Assembly (NCBI GenBank): GCA_964532425.1
Contig: CAZHIA010000001.1
Span: 44,889 to 108,888 of the forward strand
DNA length: 64,000 nt
Direction of reading: 5' to 3'
Source: an uncultured Candidatus Saccharibacteria bacterium
Lineage (GTDB): Bacteria > Patescibacteriota > Doudnabacteria > UBA920
The notes under the pieces were generated by a model that saw only the letters and a program-made list of their open reading frames with translations, was not told the DNA's origin and did not search any database. The number at the start of each line of letters is the position of its first letter. The stretch's first letter is position 1. This document shows positions 5,745 to 36,622 of the stretch, one piece after another. The position numbers and the translations under genes were made by a program.

Positions 5745-5776
5745 CTCAAACCCTTTCCCGCGAAAGGTTTTTTGTT
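5745..5776 (+). terminator. riboswitch expression-platform terminator
   Basis: CCCTTTC-ccgc-GAAAGG followed by TTTTTTG, abutting the metK start. Confidence 0.6.
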
Positions 5777-5777
5777 T

Positions 5778-6812
5778 ATGTACCAGAGTAAGTTCTATAC
5801 GGCCGAGAATGTGGCCCTCGGGCATCCGGATAAGGTCTGTGATCAGATCTCGGACGCTATTTTAGATGAGATTCTCCGGCAGGATTCAAACGGCCGCGTG
5901 GCCATGGAAGCGTTCGGCAGCCACGGGCTTTTGGTTCTTGGTGGCGAGGTTACGGCTGAGGCTGAGGTTGATTATGAAGCTGTAGCCCGCCGGGTTTATA
6001 GCGATATCGGCTACCATGAGCCGCTGGAGGTGTTAGTTCATATTGCTTGCCAGTCGCCGGATATTGCCCGCGGCGTGGATACGGGCGGCGCTGGTGATCA
6101 GGGAATTATGTACGGCTATGCCACGGACGAGACGCCGGAATACTTGCCGACCGGCGTGGTGCTGGCCAGGCAACTGGCGCAAGGACTGGCGGAACTCGGC
6201 CGCAGCCAGCCGGGGATTGGGCCTGACGGTAAGACGCAAGTAACTATGGAGAACGGCATGGTGTGCCGCGTGCTGGTCAGTTGCCAGCACGGCGAAGGTA
6301 TGGAACTGTCCGAGCTGCGGCAGATGCTCGTCGAGCGAGTAATTGTTCCGGTCTGCGGCAGGTTGCAGGACGGGCAGATCCTGGTCAATCCGACGGGCCG
6401 GTTCGTGCAAGGAGGGTTTGCAGCGGATGCGGGCCTGACCGGCCGCAAAATTATGGTTGATACCTATGGCGGGCTGGCGCCCCATGGCGGCGGCGCATTC
6501 TCCGGCAAGGATCCTTCCAAGGTCGACCGCAGTGCCGCGTACCTGGCGCGCTTAGCCGCCAAACATATGGTATCTGCCGGGCTGGCGCACGAGTGCCTGG
6601 TGTCGGTGGCATATGCCATCGGCCAAGAGCAGCCGCTTATGGTTTCCGCGGTTTCGGAGAGCGGGCAGGATCTTTCGGCGGCAGTGAAGCGGCATTTCGA
6701 TTTCAGGCCGCTGGCAATTATTGAACGGTTAGGCTTGCGCCGGCCAATCTATCGACAAACTGCCTGCTTCGGCCATTTTGGCCGGCCGGGTTTGCCGTGG
6801 GAAGAGTTATAA
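5778..6812 (+). CDS. metK: S-adenosylmethionine synthetase
   Basis: GHPDKVCDQISDA and GGGAFSGKDPSKVDRSAAY motifs. Start taken at ATG 5778; the track calls TTG 5772. Confidence 0.9.
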   Translation: MYQSKFYTAENVALGHPDKVCDQISDAILDEILRQDSNGRVAMEAFGSHGLLVLGGEVTAEAEVDYEAVARRVYSDIGYHEPLEVLVHIACQSPDIARGVDTGGAGDQGIMYGYATDETPEYLPTGVVLARQLAQGLAELGRSQPGIGPDGKTQVTMENGMVCRVLVSCQHGEGMELSELRQMLVERVIVPVCGRLQDGQILVNPTGRFVQGGFAADAGLTGRKIMVDTYGGLAPHGGGAFSGKDPSKVDRSAAYLARLAAKHMVSAGLAHECLVSVAYAIGQEQPLMVSAVSESGQDLSAAVKRHFDFRPLAIIERLGLRRPIYRQTACFGHFGRPGLPWEEL

Positions 6813-10052: not shown

Positions 10053-10453
10053 ACGGCGGGCAGCTGCCGCTTGCCCCTACGGGGACCAGGTCTTTGCAGC
10101 GTAGGGGCCGCCGACCCTGCCTGCCGGCAGGCAGGAGGCGTCCTCTCGCACAAAGCCTAAATCCTAAATTTTAAATCCTTAATCCGTATTGATAGCCAGT
10201 CTCTTCAAAACCCGGTACAATGAGAGCAGGCTGTGACTTAATTTTTCTAGTTTCTATTTTTCTATTTATTATGTTGGCAATTATTTTCGGCCTTGTTGCT
10301 ATCGGAATATTCGTCCTGTTTCGGGAGGCGTTTTCGCATGCACCGACTTCGCCGCAGCGGCCAAAGCCGGCCGCTTCGGGTGATGCCCTCGTTCGCTTCG
10401 GCCTCGGGCAGCGCCGCAAGAGTCAGCGCCGATTGCATATAGAAAAGCCGGCC

Positions 10454-11755
10454 ATGGAGTTTAATCCCGAGAACAGCCGGGCTTTGGATTTGCTCGAGAA
10501 TTCCCGCCGCAATATTTTTCTGACCGGGCGGGCCGGGGCGGGTAAATCTACCTTGCTCATGTACTTTCGCGCTACTACCAAAAAGAACGTGGCTGTGGTC
10601 GCGCCGACCGGTGTGGCTGCCATTAACGTGCAGGGCCAGACCATTCATCGCTTCTTCCGCTTTAAGCCGGATATTACGCTCGACAAAGTGCCGAAGTATT
10701 TGGACCGCGACCGGGATCTCTATAAAGAATTAGACACACTGGTCATAGACGAGATCTCCATGGTGCGGGCTGATCTGCTCGATTGTGTGGATGCGTTCTT
10801 GCGTATGCACGGACCGGAACCGGGCAAGGTTTTCGGCGGCGTGCAAATGGTGTTCATGGGAGACTTATACCAATTGCCGCCCGTGGTCAAGGACGAGGAA
10901 GAGGAAATTTTCCAGACGCACTATCGCACGGAGTTTTTCTTTTCCGCCAAGTGCCTGCAGCAGACCACGCTCATTCCGCTGGAACTGACCCGCGTGTACC
11001 GCCAGAGCGATGAAGGCTTTAAGAAAATTTTAAACGACATCCGCGACGGTACAGTCAGTGACCAGGACTTGGCAGTTTTGAACTCCCGCGTTGACCGCGA
11101 TTTTTCGCCTGCACAGGAAGAGGGTATTGTCCGCGTATGGTTGGTACCGACGCGCGCCCAAGCCGCGGAAATTAATGGCTGGCACATGGAACATCTGCCT
11201 GGCGCCATGCGCATGTACCACGGTTCGGTAGAGGGTAGGTTTTCCGAGCGCGACATGCCAACACCGTTGGAATTGGAGTTGAAAGTCGGTACGCAGGTTA
11301 TGCTGCTCAATAACGACAGCAAGGGGCGCTGGGTTAACGGCGACGTGGCCCGGGTGGTAGATTTGCGCCAGGATTTTATCCGCGTCAAGTTCGACGACGG
11401 CACGTTCGATGATGTCGAACGCCATACCTGGGACGCGTTCCGTCATACGCTCGAAAAGGGGAGTAATAAGATTGTCGCGGTTTCCGACGGCAGTTTTACC
11501 CAGTTTCCGGTCAAGCCGGCTTGGGCGTTAACCATCCACAAGTCGCAAGGTAAGACGTATGATCATGTGGCCATCGATTTAAGCCGCGGTACTTTTGCGG
11601 CCGGCCAGGCTTATGTGGCCTTGTCGCGCTGCCGCACGCTTGAAGGTCTTATTTTAAAAACCCCGCTGCGCCGCCATCACGTTATGATAGACAAGGAAGC
11701 CGCGGAGTTCATGAAGGTGGTATCATTTTTAGCGGAGAAGGGACATATCCCCTAA
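10454..11755 (+). CDS. PIF1-family 5'-3' DNA helicase (paralog 1)
   Basis: Walker A GRAGAGKST and the C-terminal TIHKSQGKTYDHVAIDLSRGTFAAGQAYVALSRCRTLEGL motif. Start set at 10454 by alignment with paralog 2. The track's start at 10220 adds a doubtful TM segment that overlaps an AT-rich repeat. Confidence 0.8.
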   Translation: MEFNPENSRALDLLENSRRNIFLTGRAGAGKSTLLMYFRATTKKNVAVVAPTGVAAINVQGQTIHRFFRFKPDITLDKVPKYLDRDRDLYKELDTLVIDEISMVRADLLDCVDAFLRMHGPEPGKVFGGVQMVFMGDLYQLPPVVKDEEEEIFQTHYRTEFFFSAKCLQQTTLIPLELTRVYRQSDEGFKKILNDIRDGTVSDQDLAVLNSRVDRDFSPAQEEGIVRVWLVPTRAQAAEINGWHMEHLPGAMRMYHGSVEGRFSERDMPTPLELELKVGTQVMLLNNDSKGRWVNGDVARVVDLRQDFIRVKFDDGTFDDVERHTWDAFRHTLEKGSNKIVAVSDGSFTQFPVKPAWALTIHKSQGKTYDHVAIDLSRGTFAAGQAYVALSRCRTLEGLILKTPLRRHHVMIDKEAAEFMKVVSFLAEKGHIP

Positions 11756-13865: not shown

Positions 13866-15968
13866 ATGTCCGAAGACAATTCTCCTCTTTACACGAAATC
13901 CTATTACGAAGAAGTCCGTAAAATCCACCCCCGCATGGGCAAGAAGTGGACTGCGGACGAAGACCAACAGCTTAAGAATGCCTACCTGCAATTCAAGGCG
14001 CAGCCGTCGGCGAATTTTGACGTGTTCCTGCAGGAACTGGTCGAGCAGTTCGGCAGGGCTTCGGGCGGCATTAAGGCAAGGTTAGCTAAATATTTTGAGG
14101 ACGTCCCGGGTTGGGACTATGGCCGCGATGCGTTCCGGCAGGAACAGCTCAATAAGGAGGCAGAGTCAGCCATTCCCAAAGACGACGAGGAGGTGCTGGT
14201 TCGGGCGTACCGCTTGTATGAAGAATCAAAAAATGAGACGTACATGGCCTTTTTACGGCGCATGTCGGAACGCCTTGGAAATATTGAGGGGAGGCTTATA
14301 ACGCACCGTTTATCGCAATTGGTCGGCGAGGTAAAAAAGTACAATAAGGAAGATGTAGGGGCGGCCAGTGGCCGCCCGCACCCAGGGAGTGATCGCGAAA
14401 AAAATACTCCCGACGTCTCAGATATCGACTTTTCTGGCAACCTTGAAGCAGGCGAGGCCTTGCGCCTTATGGAGCAGACCCGGGAAAATCTGTTTTTGAC
14501 CGGAGAGGCTGGAACCGGGAAATCGACCCTGCTGCAGTTCTTCCGCTATACCACCCAAAAGAACGTGGTGGTGCTCGCTCCGACCGGGGTGGCTGCTTTG
14601 AATGTGGAAGGCCAGACCATTCATTCGTTTTGCGGGTTCGGTCCGGATATTACGGTGCACAAGGTCAAGAAGCTAGGCCCATGGGCGCCCAAGCGCAAGC
14701 TGCTTAATAAGCTCGATGCGATTATTATAGACGAGATCTCCATGGTCCGCGCTGATCTGCTTGATTGCGTGGACAAGTTTTTGCGCATGAACGGGCCGAC
14801 TGGGACGCAAGCCTTTGGTGGCATTCAAATGATTTTCATCGGTGATCTTTATCAACTCCCGCCAGTATCCGCCGAAAGGCCTGTTGGCCAATCAGGCGGA
14901 CCCGCCACAATGTCCCGTTTTGGCGGGGCTTTGGGCGGGGAGAAGGGTTTTTATGGTGATCCTCTCCTGTCCCAATACGCCTCTCCTTATTTTTTTGATG
15001 CCCTTGCATATAAGCAGACGAAGTTCCACCACATCGCCCTCAAGCAAATGTACCGGCAGAAGGACCGGGTGTTCATCGACGTGCTGAATGCGGTGCGCAA
15101 CAATGCAGCCATGCAGGAACATTTGACCGTCTTAAACCAGCGCGCGCAGACTGCGGGTGCCAAGTTCACGTTCGAGAAATTTGCAATTTATTTAACTACT
15201 ACGAACCAACGCGCGCGGCAAGTGAATAATTTTTTCATTGAGCGCTTGAAGGGAGAGCTGAAGACTTTTCAGGGGCGCACTGCCGGAACCTTTGAGGACC
15301 GAGAGCTGCCCACAGACTTGAATTTGCAAATCAAGGTCGGCGCCCAAGTCATGATGCTCAACAACGACCGCAAGAAGCGCTGGGTCAATGGCACTATGGG
15401 GAAGATAGTTGCCATAGGTTTTGGTAATACCGATGTTGAGCAGGCCCGCGGCCTGCCCTCCCGGATGGAGAATGGTAGTGTGGTTTCTTCTCCCCAGGCG
15501 TGGGAAGATGCCCCGCAGGGGCAGAGAGGTCGAACCCTGGAAGCTGAAGATCAATCTCCCGAACTCACCTACGAACCCATCTCTCCATATGACTACCGCC
15601 CGCAATCTTCTGGCATGGTGGTAACCGTGGAATTGGAAACAGGGGAGACCGTAGACGTGACGCCGTTCACCTGGGAGATGCACAAGTTCGTGCTCGACAA
15701 GGAAACGGAGAAAATAGACATTCAGACCACGGGCACGTTCACGCAATACCCGTTCAAGTTGGCTTGGGCCGTGACCATACACAAGGCCCAGGGCAAGACG
15801 TTCGACAAGGTGTATGTGGATCTTTCCACCGGCACCTTCGCGCACGGCCAGCTCTACGTTGCCCTCTCGCGCTGCCGCACTCTGGAAGGTCTCTTCCTCC
15901 GCCGTCCCATCACCCCCGCCGACATCCTCCTCGACCAGCGCATTGTCCAATTTCTGAATTCGTTATAA
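13866..15968 (+). CDS. PIF1-family DNA helicase (paralog 2) with an ~200-aa N-terminal extension containing a Myb/SANT-like motif, plus two internal insertions
   Basis: Core ~65% identical to paralog 1 (GEAGTGKST ... TIHKAQGKTFDKVYVDLSTGTFAHGQLYVALSRCRTLEGL). N-terminus has GKKWTADEDQQLKNAYLQF...GGIKARL. Confidence 0.8.
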   Translation: MSEDNSPLYTKSYYEEVRKIHPRMGKKWTADEDQQLKNAYLQFKAQPSANFDVFLQELVEQFGRASGGIKARLAKYFEDVPGWDYGRDAFRQEQLNKEAESAIPKDDEEVLVRAYRLYEESKNETYMAFLRRMSERLGNIEGRLITHRLSQLVGEVKKYNKEDVGAASGRPHPGSDREKNTPDVSDIDFSGNLEAGEALRLMEQTRENLFLTGEAGTGKSTLLQFFRYTTQKNVVVLAPTGVAALNVEGQTIHSFCGFGPDITVHKVKKLGPWAPKRKLLNKLDAIIIDEISMVRADLLDCVDKFLRMNGPTGTQAFGGIQMIFIGDLYQLPPVSAERPVGQSGGPATMSRFGGALGGEKGFYGDPLLSQYASPYFFDALAYKQTKFHHIALKQMYRQKDRVFIDVLNAVRNNAAMQEHLTVLNQRAQTAGAKFTFEKFAIYLTTTNQRARQVNNFFIERLKGELKTFQGRTAGTFEDRELPTDLNLQIKVGAQVMMLNNDRKKRWVNGTMGKIVAIGFGNTDVEQARGLPSRMENGSVVSSPQAWEDAPQGQRGRTLEAEDQSPELTYEPISPYDYRPQSSGMVVTVELETGETVDVTPFTWEMHKFVLDKETEKIDIQTTGTFTQYPFKLAWAVTIHKAQGKTFDKVYVDLSTGTFAHGQLYVALSRCRTLEGLFLRRPITPADILLDQRIVQFLNSL

Positions 15969-24344: not shown

Positions 24345-24561
24345 CTGTAGTATTTCCTCTCCTTGTCCAAGGAGAGGTGGAATGAGGTAATCCCCATTGT
24401 GTCATTCCGACCTACGACAGTGTCCGCCGTAGCTTTACGCGAAGGCTGGAGCCGGAATCCATGCCATACAGAACATCCTACCCGCCCATTTGGCGGGTTT
24501 TTTAAATGGGTGTAAAATACTTATAGAATGGCTGTTTTTGATAGCTTAATTACAGAAATGC

Positions 24562-27507
24562 ATGAGAATAACAGACTGCCACGCTAAATATTTTGCTTAC
24601 GAGTTGACTAAGCGGTGTTCGTCTGATAGTTTAGAAAAATTATCTTCTACTTTATCAAACGCGCAAGTCGATCTAAATCCGCACCAAATTGAAGCGGCTC
24701 TTTTTGCGTTCCGCTCACCATTATCAAGAGGTGCAATTTTAGCCGACGAAGTGGGCTTAGGCAAGACCATTGAAGCCGGTCTGGTGTTGTCCCAAAAATG
24801 GGCGGAGCGTAAACGTAATCTACTGCTAATAGTACCCTCAAGTTTGCGCAAACAGTGGAATGCGGAATTACAGGAGAAGTTTTTTTTGCCCTCGACAATT
24901 TTAGAAACCAAAACATTTAATCAGTATATCAAAGATGGAAACCTAAATCCGTTTATCCAAGAAGACAAAATAATAATTTGTTCTTATCACTTTGCTCGTT
25001 CCAAGGCGCCTTATATTAAACAGACTAAATGGGACCTGGTAGTAATTGATGAAGCTCATAGGCTACGCAATGTCTATAAGACCAGCAATAAAATCGCTAA
25101 AGAGATTAAAACTACACTGGCTGATTTTCCAAAAATCCTCTTAACGGCAACCCCACTACAAAATTCCCTTCTCGAACTTTATGGTCTTGTTAGTATTATC
25201 GATGACCATGTGTTTGGTGATTTGAAAAGCTTTAAAGCCAACTACGCAAGAGTTTCCCGGCAGCAAGATATCTACGAAAGCGAGGTCGGCTTAGTAGAAC
25301 CAAAGCAGGAGATGTTTTCAGACTTGCGGGACCGACTAAAAACTATCTGCATCAGAACGCTTAGGCGGCAGGTACTGGAATATATCAAATATACCAAGCG
25401 TATCCCTTTAACCCAGGACTACGTTCCGACTGAACAGGAAATTGAGTTATATAACGGCATGTCTGCGTATTTACAAAGACCCAGACTTTTTGCCCTACCT
25501 TCCAGCCAGCGCCAACTCATTACTCTTATTTTACGCAAATTACTTGCTTCTTCGTCTTTTGCCATTGCTAGCACACTCAATGGCCTGGTATATAAATTAT
25601 CTAAACTGATTGAAGAAGCCGAGAAGCAGAAGGCTTCAGCTCAAGATGCTGATATTGCTGGAATTGACCAAAACTTTGAAAACTTCGAAGATGTCTCTGA
25701 TGAGTGGATCGATGATGAAGAAGAGGAAGAAACCGGGGCTGATAAGAAGAGTGTTATTTATACCGAAGAAGAGATCGCTTTAATGAAGGAAGAAAAAGCT
25801 GAACTGGAAAAATATCGGGAATTGGCAAAAAAAATCTGGACCAATTCCAAAGGGGATGCTCTGCTGATTGCTCTGCAAAAAGGCTTCGAGATGACCGAAG
25901 ATCTTGGAGCCAAGAAGAAGGCCATCATTTTTACAGAATCGACAATAACCCAAAATTACCTGTTAAACTTGCTTTCTGAAAATGGTTACAAAGATAAAAT
26001 TGTACTCTTTAATGGCTCCAATAATGATGACAAGTCAAAGCAGGTTTATGCCGACTGGATCAAAGCCAATAAGGACACGGATAAAATAACCGGCTCTAAG
26101 ACGGCTGATATCCGCGCTGCGCTGGTAGAGTATTTCCGTGATGATGCGGAGATTATGATAGCAACTGAAGCTGCCGCTGAAGGTGTTAACCTACAATTCT
26201 GCTCCCTGCTTATAAATTATGATTTGCCATGGAATCCTCAAAGGATTGAACAGCGCATTGGTCGCTGTCATCGTTATGGACAAAAGCACGACGTGGTGGT
26301 TATTAACTTCGTAAACCGTAAAAATGCCGCTGATCAGAGAGTTTACGAACTATTGGACCAAAAGTTTAGCCTATTCAAAGGTGTGTTTGGTGCAAGCGAC
26401 GAAGTACTTGGCAGTATTGAATCCGGGGTAGATTTTGAAAAGAGAATCGCTGATATTTACCAGACTTGCCGCACTGAAGAAGAGATTAATACAGCATTCG
26501 ACAACCTGCAGAAGGATATGGATGAAAGCATCCAGGACAGCCTACGGGAAACCAGGCAAAAATTATTAGAAAACTTCGATACCGAAGTACACGAAAAGCT
26601 AAAAGTTAATCTAAAGGAAACTCAGGCCTGTCTTGATACCTTTGAACACTGGCTTTGGGACATTACCAGATATTATCTCAAGGAAAATGCGGATTTCTCC
26701 GAGCATGAGTACTCATTTACCTTAAAAAATAATCCTTTCCCCAAGGAGTCTATTGACGCTGGTCCTTACAGGATTGGTAAGAATATTGAAGATGCTCACA
26801 TATACCGTCCTGGTCACCCGTTGGCACAAAGGATATTAAACCAAGTTAAATTAAAACCTATCGAGGAAGCAGAGGTTATATTTGATTATTCCAACAATCC
26901 AACCATCGTTTCAGTATTGAAACCACTGGTAGGTAAAAGCGGAGTGATGAAAATTTCTAACTATACAGTCGAAGCTTTTGAGGCCGAGGATAATATTATT
27001 GCCTCTGCTATCGATGAATCTGGAGAAGCTATTAACCCCGAGGTTGTGAAAAAACTTTTTTCTTTGTCGGCAGAACATAAGAAGTCAGCATTAGTACCGC
27101 CGGATGTTAAAACTCACCTTGAAAAAATTGAGCAGGAAACGGTTGCTGTAACATCCACTAATATTGCCGAACGCAATAGCACTTTTTTTGACAATGAAGT
27201 CGATAAACTTGAAAAGTGGGCGGACGACGTTAAAAAATCTTTAGAACTGGATCTAAAAAAACTGGATATTGAGATTAAAGCGTCCAAAACAAACGCAAAA
27301 AAAATCGTAAACTTGGAAGATAAGCTAAAAACACAGCGAGAAATTAAAGAAATGGAGAAAAAAAGGAACGAAATGCGAAAAAAGCTTTATGATGCTCAGG
27401 ATGAAGTGGAAGAAAAAAAAGAAGAACTTATAAATAAAGTCGAGGCACAATTGCACCAGAGATCGCATTTAGAACCACTATTTACGATTTACTGGAGAGT
27501 GGTTTAA
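24562..27507 (+). CDS. SNF2-family helicase (SNF2_N plus HELICc) with a C-terminal coiled-coil extension; first gene of the low-GC island operon
   Basis: LADEVGLGKTIEAG (motif I), DEAHRLRN (motif II), and ...GVNLQFCSLLINYDLPWNPQRIEQRIGRCHRYGQKHDVVVINFV (motifs V and VI). The C-terminus has heptad-like KE-rich repeats. Confidence 0.85.
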   Translation: MRITDCHAKYFAYELTKRCSSDSLEKLSSTLSNAQVDLNPHQIEAALFAFRSPLSRGAILADEVGLGKTIEAGLVLSQKWAERKRNLLLIVPSSLRKQWNAELQEKFFLPSTILETKTFNQYIKDGNLNPFIQEDKIIICSYHFARSKAPYIKQTKWDLVVIDEAHRLRNVYKTSNKIAKEIKTTLADFPKILLTATPLQNSLLELYGLVSIIDDHVFGDLKSFKANYARVSRQQDIYESEVGLVEPKQEMFSDLRDRLKTICIRTLRRQVLEYIKYTKRIPLTQDYVPTEQEIELYNGMSAYLQRPRLFALPSSQRQLITLILRKLLASSSFAIASTLNGLVYKLSKLIEEAEKQKASAQDADIAGIDQNFENFEDVSDEWIDDEEEEETGADKKSVIYTEEEIALMKEEKAELEKYRELAKKIWTNSKGDALLIALQKGFEMTEDLGAKKKAIIFTESTITQNYLLNLLSENGYKDKIVLFNGSNNDDKSKQVYADWIKANKDTDKITGSKTADIRAALVEYFRDDAEIMIATEAAAEGVNLQFCSLLINYDLPWNPQRIEQRIGRCHRYGQKHDVVVINFVNRKNAADQRVYELLDQKFSLFKGVFGASDEVLGSIESGVDFEKRIADIYQTCRTEEEINTAFDNLQKDMDESIQDSLRETRQKLLENFDTEVHEKLKVNLKETQACLDTFEHWLWDITRYYLKENADFSEHEYSFTLKNNPFPKESIDAGPYRIGKNIEDAHIYRPGHPLAQRILNQVKLKPIEEAEVIFDYSNNPTIVSVLKPLVGKSGVMKISNYTVEAFEAEDNIIASAIDESGEAINPEVVKKLFSLSAEHKKSALVPPDVKTHLEKIEQETVAVTSTNIAERNSTFFDNEVDKLEKWADDVKKSLELDLKKLDIEIKASKTNAKKIVNLEDKLKTQREIKEMEKKRNEMRKKLYDAQDEVEEKKEELINKVEAQLHQRSHLEPLFTIYWRVV

Positions 27508-27516
27508 GCAAGGTTT

Positions 27517-28176
27517 ATGCACCCCCAATTATATTATCAACACCATTTTTATCCATTATGCTATGGTATTCTACAATCCCATGAGTCTTTTTACTTAACC
27601 TCTGAATTTTGGACCGCCATGGCAGTTGTGGTGGCATTGATTACACCTTGGATTGTAAATTGGCTGAGTAACAAACCTAAGTTGAGTAAAATAAAAGCGA
27701 TAGGAACGAGGGTAGTGGACCAGACAAATTATGATCATGATGAGACTCTAAGAGAAGCATATACTCTCCATGTTGGCAGGCTAGTGTTAAAAAATGAGGG
27801 GGAATACACAGCTAGATCAGTAGAAGCATACTTGGAAAGGATTGTATACGAAGGTGAAGAGAGGAAGGATTTTCTACCCATGCCTCTTTCTTGGACCCAT
27901 GGACAACTTAATAAAGATGGAATTACAGTAAGAGATATCTATCCTAATCAAGCAGTTTATTTGGATGTTTTCAACCATTTTTTTAATCCTTATATTGTTG
28001 GTGATAGGGAAACTAAATTTGCTGTTGGGACTGGCGAGAACTTCGAAAATCTATCTTATGTCAATACTGGAAAATCAGATGTATATATAAAGTTTTATCA
28101 AGAAAGTGGACAGGTTAATACAGTACATTTAATCAGTAATTGGGATAATGGGGTCCCTGAATTATCAATTGTATGA
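27517..28176 (+). CDS. hypothetical protein (219 aa, one N-terminal TM), sitting between the SNF2 gene and the methyltransferase
   Basis: Starts 10 bp after the SNF2 stop. Its stop overlaps the mod start by 4 bp. No recognisable domain. Confidence 0.5.
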
Positions 28177-29843
28177 ATGACCATAAACAAAAACTGGAAT
28201 TAACATGGATTGGTAAGAATGAAGAGCTTAGGCTCGAACCTCGAATTCTGATTGAGGATCCCGATAAATCTTATGGTGATGTGGAATCGGAGAATCTTCT
28301 CATTCATGGTGACAATCTTCTCGCTCTGAAAGCTCTTCAGCAAGACTTCGCAAGTCGTGTTAAGTGTGTGTATATTGATCCACCCTATAATACAGGTAAG
28401 GCTTTCGACAAATATGATGACGGTATCGAACATTCAATTTGGCTCAATTTAATGCGCCCACGGATTGAGTTGCTTCACAGCCTTTTGGCTACCGATGGGA
28501 TAGTTTGGATCTCTTTAGATGACGTAGAAGTACATTATATGAAAATATTGTGTGACGAAGTATTCGGAAGAAATAATTTTATAGCTTCGTTGCCAACTAT
28601 TATGAATCTCAAAGGTAATAATGATGAATTTGGCTTTGCTGGTACTCATGAATACACTTTGGTTTACGCAAAAGATATATCCACCGCAAAAATTGGAATG
28701 TATGAGATTGATGAAGAAGAGATGGAGGATTGGGAAAAGGATGATATTGGGTTTTTCAAAAGAGGTGCAAATTTAAAAGCGACTGGAACAAACGCTCCCA
28801 GAGAAAAAAGACCAAACTTATATTATCCTTTATATGTTAGCGAAGATAATACCGTATCTATTACAAGACAGTCTGCTTCAGATGTAGAAATATTGCCTAT
28901 TACTGATGGGAAAGAAATGTCTTGGAGATGGAGTAAAGATAAAGTAACCAATGAGCCTTACAATATTATCATAGTTAGGAATGGTGATAATGTCTCTGTT
29001 TATAAAAAACAAAGGCCAGAGATTGGTGAACTGCCAAGTAAAAAACCAAAAACGTTATTTTATAAACCAGAGTATAGTAGTGGTAATGGAACTTCCCAAT
29101 TAAAGAGGTTGTTTGGGGAGGTGGTTTCTGTTTTTCCTTATCCAAAACCAGAAGAATTGATAGCTGATTTTATAAAGTTAACTACTTCTCCAGGAGATAT
29201 TATCCTGGATTCATTTCTTGGTTCTGGTACTACAGCTGCGGTGGCGACAAAGTTAGGAAGAAAATGGATAGGTGTTGAGATGGGGGATCATTCCTATACT
29301 TTGTGTGTACCACGTTTGCGATTAGTAATAGATGGTAAAGATGATGGAGGTATATCAAAAAAAGTAAACTGGAAAGGTGGTGGGGGGTTTAAATTTTATA
29401 ATCTTGCTCCCAGCTTGTTACGGAAGGACGGCTTTGGAAATTTTGTAATTGATGAAAAATATAATGCAAACATGTTGGCTGCAGCTGTGTGCAAGCATGA
29501 AGGTTTTAAATACTTCCCTGACGAAACTTTGTATTGGAAACAGGGTAGATCCACGGAAGCTGACTATATTTTTGTAACCACAGGTTTTGTTACAGTTGAA
29601 CAGCTTGATAAAATCCACGCGGAGATGAAGGAAGGGGAGAGCTTGTTAATTTGCGCCAAAGCTTATGCTTCAGGGTGCGAAAATCATTGTGGAAATATCA
29701 CTGTCAAGAAAATCCCCCAAATGATTTTGGGGAAATGCGAATTTGGGAAAGATAATTATGATCTAAACATTATCAAAGCCACAGAGGCTGAAGCTGAAGA
29801 AGCCGAAATGGCGCAAGTAATCGAAATGTCAGATGAACAATAA
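28173..29843 (+). CDS. mod: DNA methyltransferase (N6-adenine/N4-cytosine family, type III Mod-like)
   Basis: Motif [12 protein letters not shown], and an FxGxG-like AdoMet-binding region [10 protein letters not shown]. Confidence 0.85.
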
Positions 29844-32520
29844 AGCACAAAATATCGAAAACAGGTTAAGCCTAAGAACTCCGCAGTCAGATAGCTTGCA
29901 GATCCTGGAACAACTAGCAGACGTGCTGGGGCTTAAAAAAGATGTTAATGTCGCTGCTGAACTTTCTAAGGTCCAGGCGCTTTATCCAACCTGTTCTGAC
30001 TTTGAGCGGGATTTTCCCTCTGTCTGCTTTTCGCTGGCTACCGGCGTGGGCAAAACCCGTCTAATGGGTGCTTTTATTTCTTATCTCTTTACGGCAAAGG
30101 GAATAAAGAACTTTTTTGTTCTAGCCCCAAATTTAACCATATATGAAAAATTAAAAGCTGAATTAAGCGAGCCTAATCATCCTAAGTACGTATTTAAGGG
30201 GATTAGCGAATTTGCAGTTGATAGACCCGTAGTTATAAGCGGAGACGATTATACCCAAGCCAGCTCAACGCTATTTAGTGATAAGGTCAGTATAAATATT
30301 TTTAATATTTCCAAAATAAATTCGGAAGTCCGGGGAGGAAAAGAGCCTAGAATTAAACGGCTATCTGAATATTTAGGTGAATCGTACTTTAACTATCTCG
30401 CGTCACTACCTGATTTAGTGTTACTGATGGACGAATCCCACCACTACAGGGCAGACGCCGGCTTACGGGCTATTAACGAGCTTAAGCCGATATTAGGTTT
30501 GGAGCTTACGGCTACGCCTATAGATGCCAATGGCAATAAATTTAAAAATGTAGTATTTGATTACCCTCTAGCCCTGGCTTTAAAAGACGGCTTCGTAAAA
30601 GAACCCGCAGTAGCCACGAGGAGGAATTTCAACCCTATTCAATACAGAAATGATCCAAAGGAGTTGGATTTGATTAAACTGGAAGATGGGATAAGGATTC
30701 ATGAGGATACCAAAGTTGCTCTTGATATATATTCCCGAGACTCAGGCCGTAAACTAGTAAAGCCATTCGTGTTAGTCGTGACTCAAAATACAGACCATGC
30801 CAAAGAAATACATGAACTTATAGAGTCAGACAAATTCTTTGAGGGACGATACAAGGGAAAGGTTATCGAAGTTCACTCCAGGCAAACAGGAGAAGAAAAG
30901 GAAGAGAATATCGAAAAACTTCTTGCCTTGGAAAAACCTGAAAATACAATCGAAATTGTCATTCACGTGAACATGCTCAAAGAAGGTTGGGATATTGCCA
31001 ACTTATACACCATCATTCCTTTGCGTGCTGCAAATTCGGTGATCTTAACTGAACAAACCATTGGTCGTGGGTTACGGTTGCCTTACGGCGAGCGTACTGG
31101 CGATGCAAAAGTAGATAAATTGACCATAATAGCGCACGATAAATTCCAAACTATTGTTGACGCAGCTAATGACCCCAACTCTATAATTCGGCTGGAGAAT
31201 ATTATCGAGATTGATCCGGAAATCCTATCTGGTACCCAAGAAGTGATAGTGTCCACTTCAAGTTTGGATTTTGCTTTAGAACAACAGCGAACGGAAATTG
31301 CCACGATAACGAACGCTGAAGAAAAAGAGAAAGCGGAATTAGGGCTTGAGACACAAAAAATTATTTCTGAAACCATTGCCCATATTGGCAGCGGTATCAA
31401 AAATATAAATGATCTAAAAACCGACGAAGTCCAAAAGATAGTCTATCAAAAAATGGCCGAAAGGATTGACTTAAATCCGCAAAAACTTTTGCCAAACTTC
31501 AAAGCCCAAATTATGGAACGGGCTAAGGAAGCTTATACTACGGTTGTCGATAAATTACTAGAAAAGACCATACCCATTCCTCGAATATTAATTCAGCGAA
31601 AAGATGAAATCAAAAGCGGGTTTCATGATTTTGACTTAGATATAAGCAGTCTCAACTACCAGCCTGTAACGGACGAGATAATCAGGCGCACTTTAAGAAC
31701 CAACACTAGCGAGATTTTACACACCGAAGGAACGGGTATAATTAAAGATCTACCAGAAAACATTTTGGTAAACGAGCTAATTAATTATCCTGAAGTGGAT
31801 TACGACCGGGAAGCAGCTCTCCTCTACAAGCTTGCTAAACAGGCCATAGCTAAACTGGGTGTAAACCGCTGCAAGGAAGATTTAGAAAATATTGTCTGGT
31901 ACTACAAACGAGAGATCGGAAAGTATATATATGCCCAACTGCAGCAACACTTCTATCTAGAAGAGAGCGGTTTTGAAGAACCAGTGGTATATCCCTATAC
32001 GAAGATTGAGCCACATAATTATTCGAAGTTCACTGCAGACAGCATTTTCAATTACAGCGAAACCATCAACCCAACGAGCGCAATACCAACCAAAATTTTT
32101 GGTGGGTTTAAGAAAGCCTGTCATAACTTATACAAATTTGACTCTAAAACAGAAAAGGATTTCGCGTCAATTTTAGAGAGTGACAGGAATGTATTAAAGT
32201 GGTTGCGTCAATCACCTAGTCAATTTAGGATATACTGGGCCAAAAATTCCAAACAGTATTATCCCGATTTTGTAGTAGAGACATCGGATTCGATTTACTT
32301 AGTCGAAACGAAAGCACAGGATCAAGTAGGCTCGCCGGATGTATTAGACAAAAAAGAATCAGCACTCAGATACTGTAAGTTTGCCAGTGATTATAATGCT
32401 AAAAATGGTGGGAAGCCGTGGAAATATGTTTTGATCCCTCATACAGAAGTTTCCTCGAATATGAGCTTTGACTACTTTGTTGATAGATTCCAACAAGAAC
32501 TAAATGTGATCCCTGCATAG
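29833..32520 (+). CDS. res: type III restriction enzyme Res-like subunit (superfamily 2 helicase plus C-terminal PD-(D/E)xK nuclease)
   Basis: [11 protein letters not shown] (motif I), LLMDESHHY (motif II), TATP (motif III), and a C-terminal YYPDFVVE...LVETK nuclease motif. Overlaps the mod stop. Confidence 0.8.
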
Positions 32521-32785
32521 AATAGATAACATACCAGGTACCTTTTTTATAATAATGTAAGGTTATGGCTAATTTCAATTTAACAGTAGGAGTGTTAAAG
32601 GAGGTGAAGGGCGTTGTTTAGATTTATCGAGAGAACAGCCGTACAATATTTTGTTGGGAACTACTAGAAGAGGGAAAGGGGTATTGTATAATCATTTATA
32701 TAGTCAGTTGGCCAGGCAAAACTCGCCGGAGGAGGTGGGTTTGTTTTTATAGAGGGTATAAAACTCAAAGTTATTTACCATCTGC

Positions 32786-32875
32786 CCTAATCCTACTGGA
32801 CCATTCGCTCGAAAGGTCCAGTGCCCTCGAGTGCTTATTCCCGCCAGAGGCGGGCAGGCGCACGAATAAGCACTC
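32786..32875. repeat. composite hairpin repeat (H: GGACCATTCGCTCGAAAGGTCC; G: GAGTGCTTATTCG..CGAATAAGCACTC). A direct-orientation copy lies at 35388-35457.
   Basis: The H+G composite is present twice in direct orientation, bracketing genes 33110-35221. Further G copies lie at 36231-36264 and 36562-36591. Confidence 0.8.
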
Positions 32876-32889
32876 CCAATAAGTAATGC

Positions 32890-32917
32890 AAAACTGCCAT
32901 TGACAGGCAGTTTTTTG
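32890..32917 (+). terminator. rho-independent terminator
   Basis: AAACTGCC-attgac-GGCAGTTT followed by TTTTGG. Confidence 0.65.
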
Positions 32918-33109
32918 GTGATTTATACTAATATGAAATCCTTAAGGAGGATCAGAGTCAGCTTATAGGTTTGGAGGCGGTTGCCACGATTGTTCGGCAA
33001 TTGATGCTTTCATGCTATTTGACTCTGGTTTAATCCTTCGGGATTGAATCTATACTTGCTTGCCCTGGTTAACACCGGGGTGTAGTAAGCGAAAGGAGAA
33101 ACAAATAAC

Positions 33110-33463
33110 ATGAATGCATCTACCCGAGTAATCCAGGGTGATGTGATCAATATGTATGTCTCGAATGAGCATACGTACGTCCAGATACGAAACAACGGAT
33201 TCGTGAAGACAGTGGTCATCACGGCTGTTGAATCGGTCGATCCGCGCCAAGAACCGCTGGAACTGTTTTGGCCTAAGGGGATGATTCGTGAATTGCACTA
33301 TCTCCAAAAGGCCGGGTACTTTACCTGGGGCGATGTGAGCAAGCAGTATCAGTCAGTGGTCGAAACCACTAAACACATTGGACCCGAGACCTGGAAAATT
33401 CTCCGACAGGGGTTGGAAAACCGGGGACTGAAGTACTTTAGCGATCAAATGAGCATGTTCTGA
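33110..33463 (+). CDS. hypothetical protein (117 aa)
   Basis: GAAAGGAGA RBS; terminator hairpin at 33479-33507 directly downstream. Confidence 0.55.
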   Translation: MNASTRVIQGDVINMYVSNEHTYVQIRNNGFVKTVVITAVESVDPRQEPLELFWPKGMIRELHYLQKAGYFTWGDVSKQYQSVVETTKHIGPETWKILRQGLENRGLKYFSDQMSMF

Positions 33464-33632
33464 CTCTGACATCATCTTGGTGCGCTGGCTCCCAGCGCAC
33501 CTTTTTTAGTTGGCTTACTTGTGCCATTCATGGTTATTTTATGGTATTATAGAGGCGTAATATAGCTTTATGAGTGAGCAATTTGCCCAATTTCTATACT
33601 GACTTTTAAATTAACGATTAAAACACTCTTAT

Positions 33633-34466
33633 ATGTCGAGCCAAGGTATCAAGATTTTTTTACCTGAAGGTGACCCGAACAGTTTACAAGTCATCACTGT
33701 TGAAAATTGGGCAGGCAAAGCCTTTGTTATTCCAAGAGCCAAATTAAAGGAAATGAACACCAGGGAAGAAAAAGACTGGCCGGGGGTGTATTTTCTTATA
33801 GGTGAGTTTACTGATTCGATATTACCAGAGGTATACATAGGCGAGTCGGAGCATTTTTGTGATCGTTTATATACTCATGATAGTGAAAAGCAGTTTTGGA
33901 ATCGCGCTGTTGTGTTTACTGGCTCTATTGATAAAGCTGATGTAAAGTTTCTAGAAGATAAAGCTATCAAAGTTGCTAAAAAGATAAACCGTTTTCATAT
34001 TCATAATGACCAGGGAACAACCCCAAATAAACTTTCTGAATTTAAGCAAGCAGCTATTGAGAATTATTTTGAATATATAAAGCTGGTTATGGCAGTACTT
34101 GGGTATACTCTTTTTCAGGAGGTGCCGAGTAATATTCGTCCCGAAGAAATGTATTTCTGCAAAGTTGATGAAGCGGTGGGTAAGGGAAAGTTGTTGGACT
34201 CTGGTGAGTTTATTGTATTCAAGGGTTCTACAGCTCGGGTCAAAGAAACACCTAATTATCAAGCACATAATTCTGGGATTCGGTCTCGATTGTTAGCTGA
34301 AGGTGTATTGTCTCAGATTGGGGATGGTCTGTATTATTTCCAGTCAGATTATATCTTTACCAGTCCGAGTGCAGCAGCAGACACTATAGCCGGTAGGTCA
34401 ATGAATGGTTGGAAGGAGTGGAAAGATTCTCAAGGGAAAACATTAGATGATAATAAGAGGCAATGA
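33633..34466 (+). CDS. GIY-YIG nuclease-domain protein with a C-terminal extension
   Basis: PGVYFLIGEF..(10)..VYIGESE...R...H...E...N matches the GIY-YIG core. Confidence 0.6.
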   Translation: MSSQGIKIFLPEGDPNSLQVITVENWAGKAFVIPRAKLKEMNTREEKDWPGVYFLIGEFTDSILPEVYIGESEHFCDRLYTHDSEKQFWNRAVVFTGSIDKADVKFLEDKAIKVAKKINRFHIHNDQGTTPNKLSEFKQAAIENYFEYIKLVMAVLGYTLFQEVPSNIRPEEMYFCKVDEAVGKGKLLDSGEFIVFKGSTARVKETPNYQAHNSGIRSRLLAEGVLSQIGDGLYYFQSDYIFTSPSAAADTIAGRSMNGWKEWKDSQGKTLDDNKRQ

Positions 34467-35221
34467 TCACTCTGGCAGAAATATTCTCTAACTTGATTAC
34501 TCCCGCAATCCTGCTGGCGGTTTTAGGGTATCTTATTAGATTATTCGGACGAATTATTACCGATGCTGAAGCGTTCGTTGATGACTACAAATGGCATGTT
34601 GAACTTTCCGGTTTAATGTTTGCTATAAATTATATAGCTTTCCCTGGGTTAGTTGCTGTTCTGTTATTATATTTTAATCCGATAAAGTTAATATTTAGTT
34701 TTTGGGTGGGATTGGTCATGCTTACGCTAGTGACCGGAATGTTATATGTAAACGGTTCAATGTCAGGAAAAACATTTTATAAGTTGCCAGAATTGAAGTC
34801 AGGAGCAGAAAGTAAAAATAATGATGATAGTTTTCAGCTATTTTTCGAAAAATTTTTGAGCTGGTTAAATAAACCATTTTCGAACTATGGACTATTTTTG
34901 ATCTCAATAGTTTTAATGTTGATTTTGTGTGCTCAGGCAGGATCTACTTCTACCATAAAGTTAGCTATTTTGATCCTCTACAATTTTATTGCCTATATTT
35001 TCATTTGCGTTTTGTACTCCTTGAATAAATCTAAACAATTGAGTCAAGCGAATATATATTTTATTTCCGGTGTAGAGCCTGTACGAGATTGTTTACTTTT
35101 AAAGATCAATAATGATAATTTGAGGGTTAGGGTTGGGGATCAGTTATTCATAATCAACAAGAATCAAGTATTAAAAGTGGAAATTTATAAGAAAATATCT
35201 ACGAAGGCCAAAAAGAACTAA
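34463..35221 (+). CDS. hypothetical multi-pass membrane protein, translationally coupled to the GIY-YIG gene
   Basis: ATGA overlap with the upstream gene. Five or six hydrophobic helices. AT-rich. Confidence 0.55.
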   Translation: MITLAEIFSNLITPAILLAVLGYLIRLFGRIITDAEAFVDDYKWHVELSGLMFAINYIAFPGLVAVLLLYFNPIKLIFSFWVGLVMLTLVTGMLYVNGSMSGKTFYKLPELKSGAESKNNDDSFQLFFEKFLSWLNKPFSNYGLFLISIVLMLILCAQAGSTSTIKLAILILYNFIAYIFICVLYSLNKSKQLSQANIYFISGVEPVRDCLLLKINNDNLRVRVGDQLFIINKNQVLKVEIYKKISTKAKKN

Positions 35222-35499
35222 AACAAATAATTGATATATATGCCGATCAACAAAGAATGGCACCTGAAGAACAGGATGCCGAAGAATGCGACACGGGAGC
35301 AACGTATAGCCTGGCATGAGGGGCATGCCAAGCATTGCTCGTGCCGGGATTCCAAGGCTCATCTTAAGAAACTAAAATCTTCCTAATCCGACCATGGGAC
35401 CATTCGCTCGAAAGGTCCGCTACCCTCAAATGCTTATTCGCACGAATAAGCACTCGGGGGTTTGCAGCAAAAGCAAAAAAACATTATTGGGGTGAATGT

Positions 35500-36204
35500 A
35501 TGAGCAAATCATCAAACACATCAAGCTGGTCCTTGAAGCTATTGGGGTTCATGCTGCGCCCGTTTGTGAAGCCTATCCGGTACGGCGCTTTGAAGTTGAT
35601 GAAAACTATGCACCAGCCTAATGACCGAAGGCCATCTATGGCGGCGGCTGAACATGTTTTGGAGGAGTATGTTTTTCCTTCCGTCTACCAGACATTTCAG
35701 GATGTACAACTCCGACAGCTAGCCCATTTCGAAAAATTACCGACATCGGAGCATGACCGGATCTTCAATGAATTGCTGGTGGCGGGAATCATCTCAGTTG
35801 AAAATTATTTAGACGCCCAGAAAGAACATGTCAGAGACGGGGACTTTCATTTTTGGCGTAATGTCCTGGAAGAATTGCCCAGACAATATACCAAAAAAAT
35901 GATCAGTCTCGGAGTGGATAGTGGCAATGCCAAATTAATGCGTCAGCTGGTGGAGATGCGATATACGGAATATGAAGAGTTGGCTGATGAAGTTTGGCAA
36001 GCCAGTAACGGTGCGAGTAAAGAGTTTCGTGACCTGGAGCCCGAACAAAAACGCCTCGCTTCCATGATTCAGGGTATAGCCATTGGTACCGCGAGTCATA
36101 TCTTCCGTGGAAAATTACAAGATGGCGATCCATTGACTCAGTACCTTGCCGCCTGGAACTTGCAGCTTCAGAGGAAGGTGGGAAAGTTCACGAGAAATCT
36201 TTGA
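35500..36204 (+). CDS. hypothetical protein (234 aa)
   Basis: Clean ORF; no recognisable domain. Confidence 0.45.
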   Translation: MSKSSNTSSWSLKLLGFMLRPFVKPIRYGALKLMKTMHQPNDRRPSMAAAEHVLEEYVFPSVYQTFQDVQLRQLAHFEKLPTSEHDRIFNELLVAGIISVENYLDAQKEHVRDGDFHFWRNVLEELPRQYTKKMISLGVDSGNAKLMRQLVEMRYTEYEELADEVWQASNGASKEFRDLEPEQKRLASMIQGIAIGTASHIFRGKLQDGDPLTQYLAAWNLQLQRKVGKFTRNL

Positions 36205-36300
36205 AGTTAGATCATTTGAATTACGATTCCCCGGAGTGCTTATTCGCACGAATAAGCACTCCGGGAAGAATACAACAAAAATATTAAGCGGAATAAAAGT

Positions 36301-36561
36301 ATGAAAGAGCTTGAACGACAGCTGAAAGCCCTGGCCAACCGGCGGCGGCTGGGGATAGTCAAGTTCTTGGGCAAGGCCAAGTCGGCTTCGGTAGGAGAGA
36401 TTGCGAAAGAGATTAAACTCTCTTTTAAATCCACTTCCCGTCATTTGGCGGTGCTCCGGTCGGCGGATATTGTCAGCCGCGACCAGGCGAGCCTGCAGGC
36501 TATTTATAGCCTGCACAATGCGCCGCATCCGATCTCGCGCTACATAATCTCGCAGTGTTGA
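36301..36561 (+). CDS. ArsR/SmtB-family transcriptional regulator
   Basis: wHTH region ...SASVGEIAKEIKLSFKSTSRHLAVLRSADIV...; flanked on both sides by 13-2-13 G palindromes. Confidence 0.75.
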   Translation: MKELERQLKALANRRRLGIVKFLGKAKSASVGEIAKEIKLSFKSTSRHLAVLRSADIVSRDQASLQAIYSLHNAPHPISRYIISQC

Positions 36562-36622
36562 CCAGTGCTTATTCGCACGAATAAGCACTGGGGCGGAGAG
36601 TGGGGTGGGGTGGGAGGGGAAT

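Follow-up and report, generated by a model that had tools for sequence, protein, structure and literature searches.

Type III restriction-modification (R-M) is textbook two-subunit biology. The Mod dimer places m6A on one strand of an asymmetric site (hemimethylation), and the Mod2-Res complex, which uses ATP as a switch, slides on DNA and cleaves DNA with unmethylated, inversely oriented sites. Classical type III systems (EcoP1I, EcoP15I, and StyLTI) comprise two genes by definition. Class 1 DISARM consists of DrmD, DrmMI, DrmA, DrmB, and DrmC, and is weakened by the joint deletion of drmD and drmMI (bioRxiv 10.1101/2021.12.28.474362). ARMADA, BREX type 3, and Hma/BR share a RapA/BrxHII-like SNF2 protein, an N6 methyltransferase, and a changeable effector (PMC12458937; PMC12839542). 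Deletion of armA abolishes ARMADA II defence (PMC13463889), and other defence genes insert into hma operons (PMC11232893). Variable extra genes are also co-expressed inside R-M loci, such as prrC in EcoprrI and Abi/HEPN genes (Makarova, 2013, PMC3632139; PMC3710099).

Here we describe an operon in which a DrmD-like SNF2 gene and a gene for a 219-aa protein precede type III mod and res genes. It is located in a stretch of 64,000 nucleotides, below termed the window. We consider it likely that the operon represents a mobile three-gene defence module (SNF2, Mod, and Res) with a slot holding, in this case, a rare membrane-anchored beta-sandwich protein as cargo.

The low-GC island and its operon

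The four genes are located in an island of low GC content (Table 1), with a GC content of 0.393 for the operon itself (24562-32520). The initial annotation had the sequence turn AT-rich at about 24.5 kb, which was confirmed, while the right end was found at about 36.2 kb, slightly past the 35.4 kb given earlier. Horizontal acquisition had been suggested, and judged by its composition relative to the rest of the window the island does look acquired. A tRNA gene, an integrase gene, and flanking direct repeats were sought at the island ends and none was found. Comparison of the island with 5,426 E. coli genomes by megablast gave no match. Assignment of the genome to CPR/Patescibacteria is based on MetK (5772-6812), whose best matches, at 62-67% identity, bear the names Ryan-, Jorgensen-, Lloyd-, and Liptonbacteria. 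Promoter-like sites were no more numerous here than expected from shuffled sequence, and the promoter matches upstream of the SNF2 gene are therefore weak evidence. The hairpin 3' of res is the probable end of the operon.

Table 1. Positions of features in and around the operon.
Feature	Position	Strand	Basis or remark
Terminator-like hairpin	24480..24498	+	Closes upstream region; left island edge
Two overlapping weak sigma-70-like promoter matches	24490..24529	+	About 35 nt 5' of SNF2 start; consensus matches only
Low-GC island	24505..36210	.	GC 0.398 vs 0.522 elsewhere in window; CPR/Patescibacteria genome
DrmD/RapA-like SNF2 ATPase, 981 aa	24562..27507	+	Domains, models, motifs
Putative cargo gene, 219-aa membrane-anchored beta-sandwich protein, rare unannotated family	27517..28176	+	Homologues, AlphaFold, contexts
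Type III Mod, beta-class N6-adenine methyltransferase, 556 aa	28173..29843	+	PADLOC, PF01555, motifs, structure matches
Type III Res, 895 aa, SF2 helicase and C-terminal PD...ExK nuclease	29833..32520	+	PADLOC, ResIII, motifs
Terminator-like hairpin	32719..32742	+	3' of res

The four co-oriented ORFs were found exactly at the positions called initially and are tightly coupled. The gap between the SNF2 gene and the 219-aa gene is 9 nt when read from the sequence and not 10 as first given, while the overlaps of 4 and 11 nt were as described: the 219-aa gene overlaps mod in an ATGA, and mod lies directly 5' of res and overlaps it by 11 nt in one operon.

The SNF2 protein contains SNF2-rel_dom (1e-34) and Helicase_C (1e-19) domains in Pfam, with motifs I (GLGKT), II (DEAH), III (TATPLQN), and VI (QRIGRCHRYGQ) intact. 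Its best matches were DrmD models (PADLOC DrmD PDLC02619, 1e-208), and relative to these the HmaA and BrxHII models in PADLOC matched weakly. Against NCBIfam DISARM_DrmD_b it scored 692 bits, which is under the cut-off of 950. The C-terminus contains an alpha+beta domain and a helical hairpin, with long helices predicted at 847-914 and 918-964 in an AlphaFold model whose overall confidence is low (pLDDT 52). This is consistent with the coiled-coil tail noted earlier, although the model is too poor for a fold search. Within the module SNF2 is conserved best, at 72-79% identity, while Mod reaches about 50% and Res 36-72%; the SNF2 family comprises at least 8,000 clusters. A natural single-gene form, in which SNF2 is joined to a nuclease, was seen in Thioclava.

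In Mod, motif IV (DPPYNTG, residue 69) precedes motif I (FLGSGTT, residue 348), as in the beta class, and the protein was identified as N6_N4_Mtase (PF01555, 9e-44). It matched PADLOC MTase_III PDLC03636 over its full length (3.7e-167), and each of its top 25 PADLOC matches was to a methyltransferase model of type III or type II. Among solved structures it matched the Mod chains of EcoP15I (4zcf, 2.6e-30), H. pylori Mod (6k0w), and Mbo45V (7dsu), with E values of 1e-30 to 1e-32. Res matched PADLOC REase_III PDLC03648 (2.5e-189) and the Pfam domains ResIII (1e-21) and Helicase_C, and no direct sequence match was found between Res and solved structures. The PADLOC type III matches span nearly the full length of both Mod and Res. 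The C-terminal PD...ExK motif of Res reads YYPDFVVE...LVETKA, with weak matches to RE_endonuc and TnsA-like models; together with TGVGKT, DESH, TATP, and GRGLR it was kept across seven loci. The catalytic motifs are intact in all three enzymes, and Pfam and motif searches agreed with the domains assigned in the initial annotation, i.e., SNF2 with Helicase_C, a DPPYNTG methyltransferase, and a ResIII helicase with a C-terminal PD...ExK nuclease.

Linkage of SNF2 to type III mod and res

We inspected 18 loci representing at least 10 lineages, Klebsiella and Salmonella plasmids included. Rather than a two-gene composition of Mod and Res only, we found SNF2 co-oriented with a type III Mod in all 18 loci, with Res visible in 17. 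The identical four-gene order was found in a Lentisphaerae MAG at 48-73% identity. Close SNF2 homologues (75-79% identity) from Patescibacteria, Omnitrophota, Brocadiia, and a deltaproteobacterial MAG were each followed by an N6_N4_Mtase gene and then by a ResIII/TnsA-like gene. Twelve plasmid loci (Cupriavidus, Rhizobium, Salmonella, Klebsiella, Planctomycetes, Deinococcus, Hymenobacter, Conchiformibius, Aeromonas with two systems, Blastomonas, and Sphingopyxis) all carried SNF2 with Mod, with Res visible in every locus save one. SNF2 was found to partner three pairs of PADLOC type III models (03636/03648, 03634/03647, and 03646/03654).

The reverse test gave the same result. SNF2 was present in 22 of 22 plasmid records in which a Res of this lineage is near full length, and a record with a partial Deinococcus Res match likewise carries SNF2. 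Neighbourhoods were checked in five of these records; in most records the SNF2 and Res matches were on the same strand, 1.7-8 kb apart. With a type III Mod beside SNF2 in every locus inspected, and SNF2 in every record with such a Res, SNF2-Mod-Res is a conserved three-gene module.

The genes might instead have met by chance in a defence island, as a two-gene type III R-M system, a stand-alone DrmD-like helicase, and an unrelated small gene. Defence genes do cluster, DrmD-like helicases join many different systems, a form fused to a nuclease exists in Thioclava, and unrelated genes part SNF2 from Mod in 11 of the 18 loci, with IS elements in two. However, co-occurrence was found in both directions, across phyla and with three type III lineages. 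The strand was conserved throughout and the gene order nearly always, and in loci without cargo the gaps were only 8-55 nt. Independent clustering would not hold the pairing together while the genes between and around it change, and we regard a chance assembly as unlikely. The initial annotation had proposed an SNF2-assisted type III-like variant, and since the island looks acquired and SNF2 is linked to Mod and Res, this is the right reading.

In the literature searched, which included a type III review from 2013, no description of the SNF2-type III arrangement was found. A Cronobacter paper names both genes, but only in a list of the cargo that an integrative element carries.

The slot between SNF2 and mod

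The slot between SNF2 and mod has a variable content. Cargo was absent in 5 of the 18 loci, whereas elsewhere the slot was found to hold AbiD, AbiU/AIPR, SIR2, AAA+DUF4276, DUF262, Bro-N, or SLFN/AlbA+DUF2130+SMC, with matches of 7e-67 for AbiD, 7e-34 for AbiU, and 8e-120 for SIR2.

In the window the slot holds the 219-aa gene. A confident AlphaFold model of its product (pLDDT 85) has one TM helix at residues 29-51, as noted initially, followed by an all-beta domain in which no toxin or enzyme fold was found. The protein had no Pfam, NCBIfam, or PHROGs match, and its sole PADLOC match, JetB with E = 0.005, was dismissed. The NCBI gene call starts at an internal Met and gives 185 aa; however, conservation among homologues starts upstream of this Met, so that the reading of 219 aa remains valid and with it the tight coupling. 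A conserved R/K-rich stretch follows directly after the TM helix, so that the positive-inside rule would place the beta-sandwich in the cytoplasm. A profile search among 1.84 billion representatives gave 235 relatives only, and the seven longest among those listed had no informative Pfam domain. Residues H128, D150, and E196/S197 of the protein are invariant, and the family is found mainly in CPR bacteria.

The initial annotation took both SNF2 and the 219-aa protein as obligatory, i.e., an indivisible four-component system with Mod and Res. Translational coupling of the four genes and the conserved order in the Lentisphaerae MAG agree with this. The 219-aa gene was, however, found in two of the 18 SNF2-Mod-Res loci and is absent from 16, and its family comprises 52 clusters compared to the thousands of SNF2. 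Its homologues also occur where there is no SNF2: in type I R-M operons, where they separate hsdM from hsdS, next to a type II HpaII/Vsr/Mrr cluster, and alone among housekeeping genes. Genomic contexts have thus largely refuted a four-component system, which we hold to be very unlikely, and in the light of the same contexts the 219-aa protein is no obligatory partner of SNF2-Mod-Res. It had been foreseen that both genes might prove unlinked from mod and res in other genomes; this was the case for the 219-aa gene, whereas SNF2 stays linked.

The 219-aa protein would rather be independent, hitch-hiking cargo, as suggested by its position, which is that of AbiD, AbiU/AIPR, and SIR2 in sister loci. 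By this analogy it is probably a second-line abortive-infection or exclusion factor at the inner membrane face. Alternatively, it could be a general R-M accessory, for instance in membrane tethering or regulation at DNA entry. In 6 of 7 R-M contexts its gene precedes, in most cases immediately, the gene for the DNA-recognition subunit, which is hsdS in L002, L013, and L018 and mod in the window, L009, and L029, and in several contexts it overlaps the neighbouring start or stop codon. A cytoplasmic beta-sandwich and the lack of a toxin or enzyme fold in the model would also suit an accessory. Against this, most R-M systems in the same lineages are without the gene, relatives stand alone among housekeeping genes, and the slot elsewhere holds bona fide Abi and SIR2 effectors. 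An accessory role is thus rather unlikely, and we retain the cargo reading.

Proposed function and comparison with described systems

From established type III biology, the Mod dimer of this locus would hemimethylate an asymmetric site with m6A, and Mod2-Res would slide with ATP as a switch and cut DNA bearing unmethylated, inversely oriented sites. With lower confidence, SNF2 may be a functional third component, a double-stranded-DNA translocase that aids the restriction complex in reaching invading DNA or in acting on it. It might, for instance, clear bound proteins or roadblocks, or license the restriction of DNA that has newly entered. We infer this translocase role by analogy with DrmD, ArmA, BrxHII, and ietH, and the loss or weakening of defence in drmD, armA, and ietH mutants sets a precedent for a DrmD-like ATPase being required. 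Going further, and only tentatively since we hold this somewhat short of probable, SNF2-Mod-Res could be a distinct, widespread, and unnamed class of ATP-dependent restriction, with a type III enzyme that includes a highly conserved DrmD-like translocase as an integral third subunit, a slot that captures second-line effectors, and the 219-aa protein as a new membrane-anchored effector family centred on CPR bacteria.

If type III lineages need or benefit from a dedicated SNF2 translocase, a mechanistic layer would be added to well-studied enzymes, and type III R-M would join DISARM, ARMADA, BREX-3, and Hma/BR in a group composed of SNF2, a methyltransferase, and a swappable effector. The module is found on conjugative plasmids of Klebsiella, Salmonella, Citrobacter, and Raoultella, where it could influence phage therapy and plasmid traffic. 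Present annotation splits it into "RM type III" and an orphan "SNF2-related protein". The internal slot is a ready place to seek new defence genes, with the 219-aa family as one candidate. An operon of 8 kb would cost the host a good deal if its genome is small, as CPR genomes typically are.

With classical type III systems the locus shares a beta-class m6A Mod with homology to EcoP15I Mod, a Res that joins an SF2 helicase to a C-terminal PD-(D/E)xK nuclease, and the order of mod and res. The locus differs in that an SNF2 protein of about 980 aa is encoded in every examined locus of these lineages and in that the operon tolerates cargo genes between its parts.

The resemblance to class 1 DISARM proposed initially holds for SNF2, which is nearest to the DrmD models and whose gene adjoins an adenine methyltransferase gene as in that system, but not for the rest of the locus. 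In place of a PglX-like DrmMI (pfam13659) there is a full-length type III Mod, and the effector is Res. In agreement with the initial annotation, which had listed no DrmB or DrmC equivalents, a scan of ORFs between 13.8 and 37.7 kb detected neither DrmA nor DrmB (DUF1998) nor DrmC (PLD). Among the genes annotated or called in the other 17 loci there was likewise none, save a divergent 189-aa PLDc_2 gene in L047. That the operon is class 1 DISARM in a degraded or minimal form, with drmABC lost, is extremely unlikely, given also that SNF2 falls below the DrmD_b cut-off and that an intact Res supplies the nuclease.

Three other systems were considered and rejected. The island contains no YprA-family DExH helicase with DUF1998 (ArmC), as ARMADA is defined (PMC12458937), and its ORFs contain no BrxC or PglZ domains, as for BREX type 3, and no DUF499 AAA+ ATPase, as for Hma/BR (PMC12839542). 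Since the genes that define DISARM, ARMADA, BREX, and Hma/BR are absent, the locus is none of these systems, and its effector partner is Res, unlike in the latter three.

The slot genes (219-aa, AbiD, AbiU, and SIR2) sit inside an R-M operon like prrC in EcoprrI and the Abi/HEPN genes. Unlike these, the 219-aa family is without a nuclease or HEPN fold, unannotated, membrane-anchored, and known mainly from CPR bacteria. A precedent for the SNF2 gene is ietHAS (Liu-DS4), where a DrmD-like SNF2 protein is an essential add-on to the otherwise self-sufficient ietAS and where protection is lost once the Walker A or DEAH motif of ietH is mutated (PMC13069673). The partner is a protease/ATPase pair in ietHAS, whereas in the present locus it is an R-M system.

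Gene layout of the operon and the low-GC island

The four ORFs were called at the positions claimed for them in the initial annotation. In the sequence itself, 9 nt separate the first two ORFs, the second and third overlap in an ATGA start/stop, and the third and fourth overlap by 11 nt. The GC content was found to be 39.3% for the operon and 39.8% for 24505-36210, compared to 52.2% for the remaining window.

Features of the window
Feature	Position	Strand	Remark
SAM riboswitch RF00162	5622-5735		55.5 bits; directly upstream of metK
metK	5772-6812
PIF1-like helicase gene	10220-11755
PIF1-like helicase gene	13866-15968
LCAT/lipase-like protein, 944 aa	16884-19718		second low-GC patch (0.42-0.45)
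Terminator-like hairpin	24480-24498		left edge of island
SNF2 ORF, 981 aa	24562-27507	+	ORF call
219-aa ORF	27517-28176	+	ORF call
Mod ORF, 556 aa	28173-29843	+	ORF call
Res ORF, 895 aa	29833-32520	+	ORF call
Terminator-like hairpin	32719-32742		3' of res
Palindromic element, core AGTGCTTATTCGCACGAATAAGCACT	32798-32876, 35397-35459, 36224-36265, 36553-36594		four copies
277-aa protein	33633-34466		second candidate defence module
252-aa ORF	34463-35221		second candidate defence module

The island holds a second candidate defence module. Its 277-aa protein matched the PADLOC candidate PDC-S14 (1.4e-87) and phrog_12629 and has a DUF4357 C-terminus (1.3e-22). The gene overlaps by 4 nt the 252-aa ORF, which has several hydrophobic stretches and 33% GC and gave no family match. 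The palindromic element occurs at gene boundaries only, all four copies being in the island's right half; the rest of the 64 kb contains none (chance expectation 0.01 matches). A second hairpin, GGACCATTCGCTCGAAAGGTCC, stands ahead of each of the first two copies, and these pairs flank a 2.6-kb segment holding PDC-S14. Possible readings of the element are a REP-like sequence and a cassette boundary. Elsewhere in the window, the LCAT/lipase-like gene is closely preceded by the two PIF1-like helicase genes. MetK shares 62-67% identity with its nearest relatives; among the matches listed, all those with a name belong to Parcubacteria-type CPR lineages apart from one labelled Nanoarchaeota, which places the host in Patescibacteria/CPR.

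Linkage of the SNF2 gene to Mod and Res

The SNF2 gene, encoding a DrmD/RapA-like ATPase, is strongly linked to the genes for the type III methyltransferase Mod and the helicase-nuclease Res, as initially claimed. A Lentisphaerae MAG carries the four genes in an order identical to the window. Downstream of each of four close SNF2 homologues (75-79% identity), which come from Patescibacteria, Omnitrophota, Brocadiia and a deltaproteobacterial MAG, lies an N6_N4_Mtase gene with a ResIII/TnsA-like gene after it. Among plasmids, tblastn with SNF2 gave 50 records, and 12 loci were inspected (Cupriavidus, Rhizobium, Salmonella, Klebsiella, Planctomycetes, Deinococcus, Hymenobacter, Conchiformibius, Blastomonas, Sphingopyxis and Aeromonas, the last counted twice for two separate systems on one plasmid). 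SNF2 was co-oriented with a site-specific methyltransferase in all 12, and a DEAD/DEAH 'Res' helicase was visible in 11, the Hymenobacter stretch stopping within the methyltransferase gene. Altogether, SNF2 occurred with Mod in 18 of 18 loci and with a visible Res in 17, in a sample skewed to plasmids and best matches.

The reverse test gave the same picture. Each of the 22 plasmid records in which a Res of the window lineage is nearly full-length also matched SNF2, in most of them on the same strand and 1.7-8 kb apart (neighbourhoods checked in five), and the Deinococcus record, with a Res match of 70% coverage, was likewise among the SNF2 matches. The only plasmid Res matches lacking SNF2 were distant and half-length (Gordonia, Arthrobacter, Citricoccus). 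According to PADLOC, three type III lineages pair with SNF2: 03636/03648 in the window, 03634/03647 in Cupriavidus, and the 'long' 03646/03654 in Klebsiella and Conchiformibius.

SNF2 was the most conserved component, at 72-79% identity; Res reaches 36-72% and Mod, with its swapped target-recognition region, about 50%. The SNF2 family is very large, a cut-off of E <= 1e-100 giving at least 8,000 clusters.

A single 1,233-aa ORF on a Thioclava plasmid (NZ_CP149930.1, 19135-22836) combines the SNF2 core (query residues 1-837) with the C-terminal nuclease region of Res (residues 562-878), and there is no methyltransferase. It could be a deletion product; read as a natural fusion, it is a weak hint of the Rosetta-stone type that SNF2 and Res are functionally connected.

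Other observations concern the surroundings of these loci. Aeromonas media pE31A (NZ_CP067418.1; L050, L043) carries two different SNF2-type III systems, one preceded by a WYL-domain regulator. The two systems share an AAA + DUF4276 gene pair, which separates SNF2 from Mod in one of them and Mod from Res in the other. A small helix-turn-helix gene, probably a controller-type regulator, runs up to or into the start of SNF2 in six of the first 10 plasmid loci (L035-L039, L043); neither the window nor the loci of uncultivated lineages have one. On the Brocadiia contig (L047, 7233-7802), a divergent 189-aa PLDc_2 gene just upstream of SNF2 is the sole PLD-type (DrmC-like) neighbour among the inspected loci.

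The 219-aa protein and the variable cargo

The proposal that the 219-aa protein is a partner of SNF2 was not borne out, since its gene was present in only two of the 18 loci and its family also occurs in type I and II R-M and housekeeping settings. In other loci the SNF2-Mod interval holds Bro-N; SLFN/AlbA, DUF2130 and SMC_N; IS256 and AbiD (7e-67); SIR2 (8e-120) and an AAA-like protein; AIPR/AbiU (7e-34), HTH and VapC; a 1,210-aa AAA ATPase; AAA and DUF4276; or unknown genes. DUF262 or AAA + DUF4276 can also separate Mod from Res, and five of the 18 loci are cargo-free.

The family has few members, with 52 clusters among 5.8 billion at 90% identity, and a profile search across 1.84 billion representatives giving 235; no fused informative domain was found in the longer relatives scanned. 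Three type I loci (L002, L013, L018) have a member between hsdM and hsdS. Other members adjoin HpaII, Vsr and Mrr genes (L006), precede a Mod-like methylase (L029), or stand beside a serine recombinase (L005), and further ones are found among housekeeping genes, e.g., trigger factor/SmpB, TopA/DprA and MnmA. Roughly seven of 16 distinct contexts are R-M operons, of three types and well above chance, and the family is therefore a hitch-hiker of R-M loci rather than an SNF2 partner. The gene is usually located just upstream of that for the DNA-recognition subunit, as would suit a general accessory of R-M complexes, which we consider improbable. Most likely, the protein is an independent second-line factor at the membrane.

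Proposed mechanism and comparison with known systems

Components, motifs, gene coupling and conserved linkage are direct observations; the action of Mod and Res is proposed from established type III biology. According to the EcoP15I literature (e.g., PMC4490356), Mod2 hemimethylates an asymmetric site, and Mod2-Res uses ATP as a switch for one-dimensional diffusion and cleaves DNA with inversely oriented unmethylated sites. At the window locus, Mod2 would likewise hemimethylate an asymmetric site, and Mod2-Res would cleave DNA with such unmethylated site pairs after ATP-switched diffusion. SNF2 would contribute as a third functional component that translocates along double-stranded DNA and assists or licenses restriction. 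We infer this from the two-way linkage, the conservation above Mod and Res, and precedents of related ATPases needed in defence, i.e., ietH (PMC13069673), ArmA (PMC13463889) and DrmD jointly with DrmMI, the double deletion of which weakens class 1 DISARM (bioRxiv 10.1101/2021.12.28.474362). SNF2-Mod-Res probably constitutes one functional module with swappable cargo. That SNF2 specifically clears roadblocks or aids access is a tentative suggestion by analogy.

In the part of the literature covered, including the 2013 type III review, no description of an SNF2-type III linkage was found, and an earlier mention is possible; one Cronobacter paper names both genes side by side without comment. The locus is not DISARM, as DrmA, DrmB and DrmC were not found among the ORFs scanned between 13.8 and 37.7 kb, the methyltransferase is of the wrong class and SNF2, which matches the PADLOC DrmD model at 1e-208, scores below the NCBIfam equivalog cut-off (692 bits against 950). 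ARMADA requires a YprA/DUF1998 helicase, and BREX-3 and DUF499 BR/Hma require BrxC or DUF499 (BREX also PglZ), none of which was found in the island. At the sequence level, the locus agrees with type III R-M in everything except the two-gene composition.
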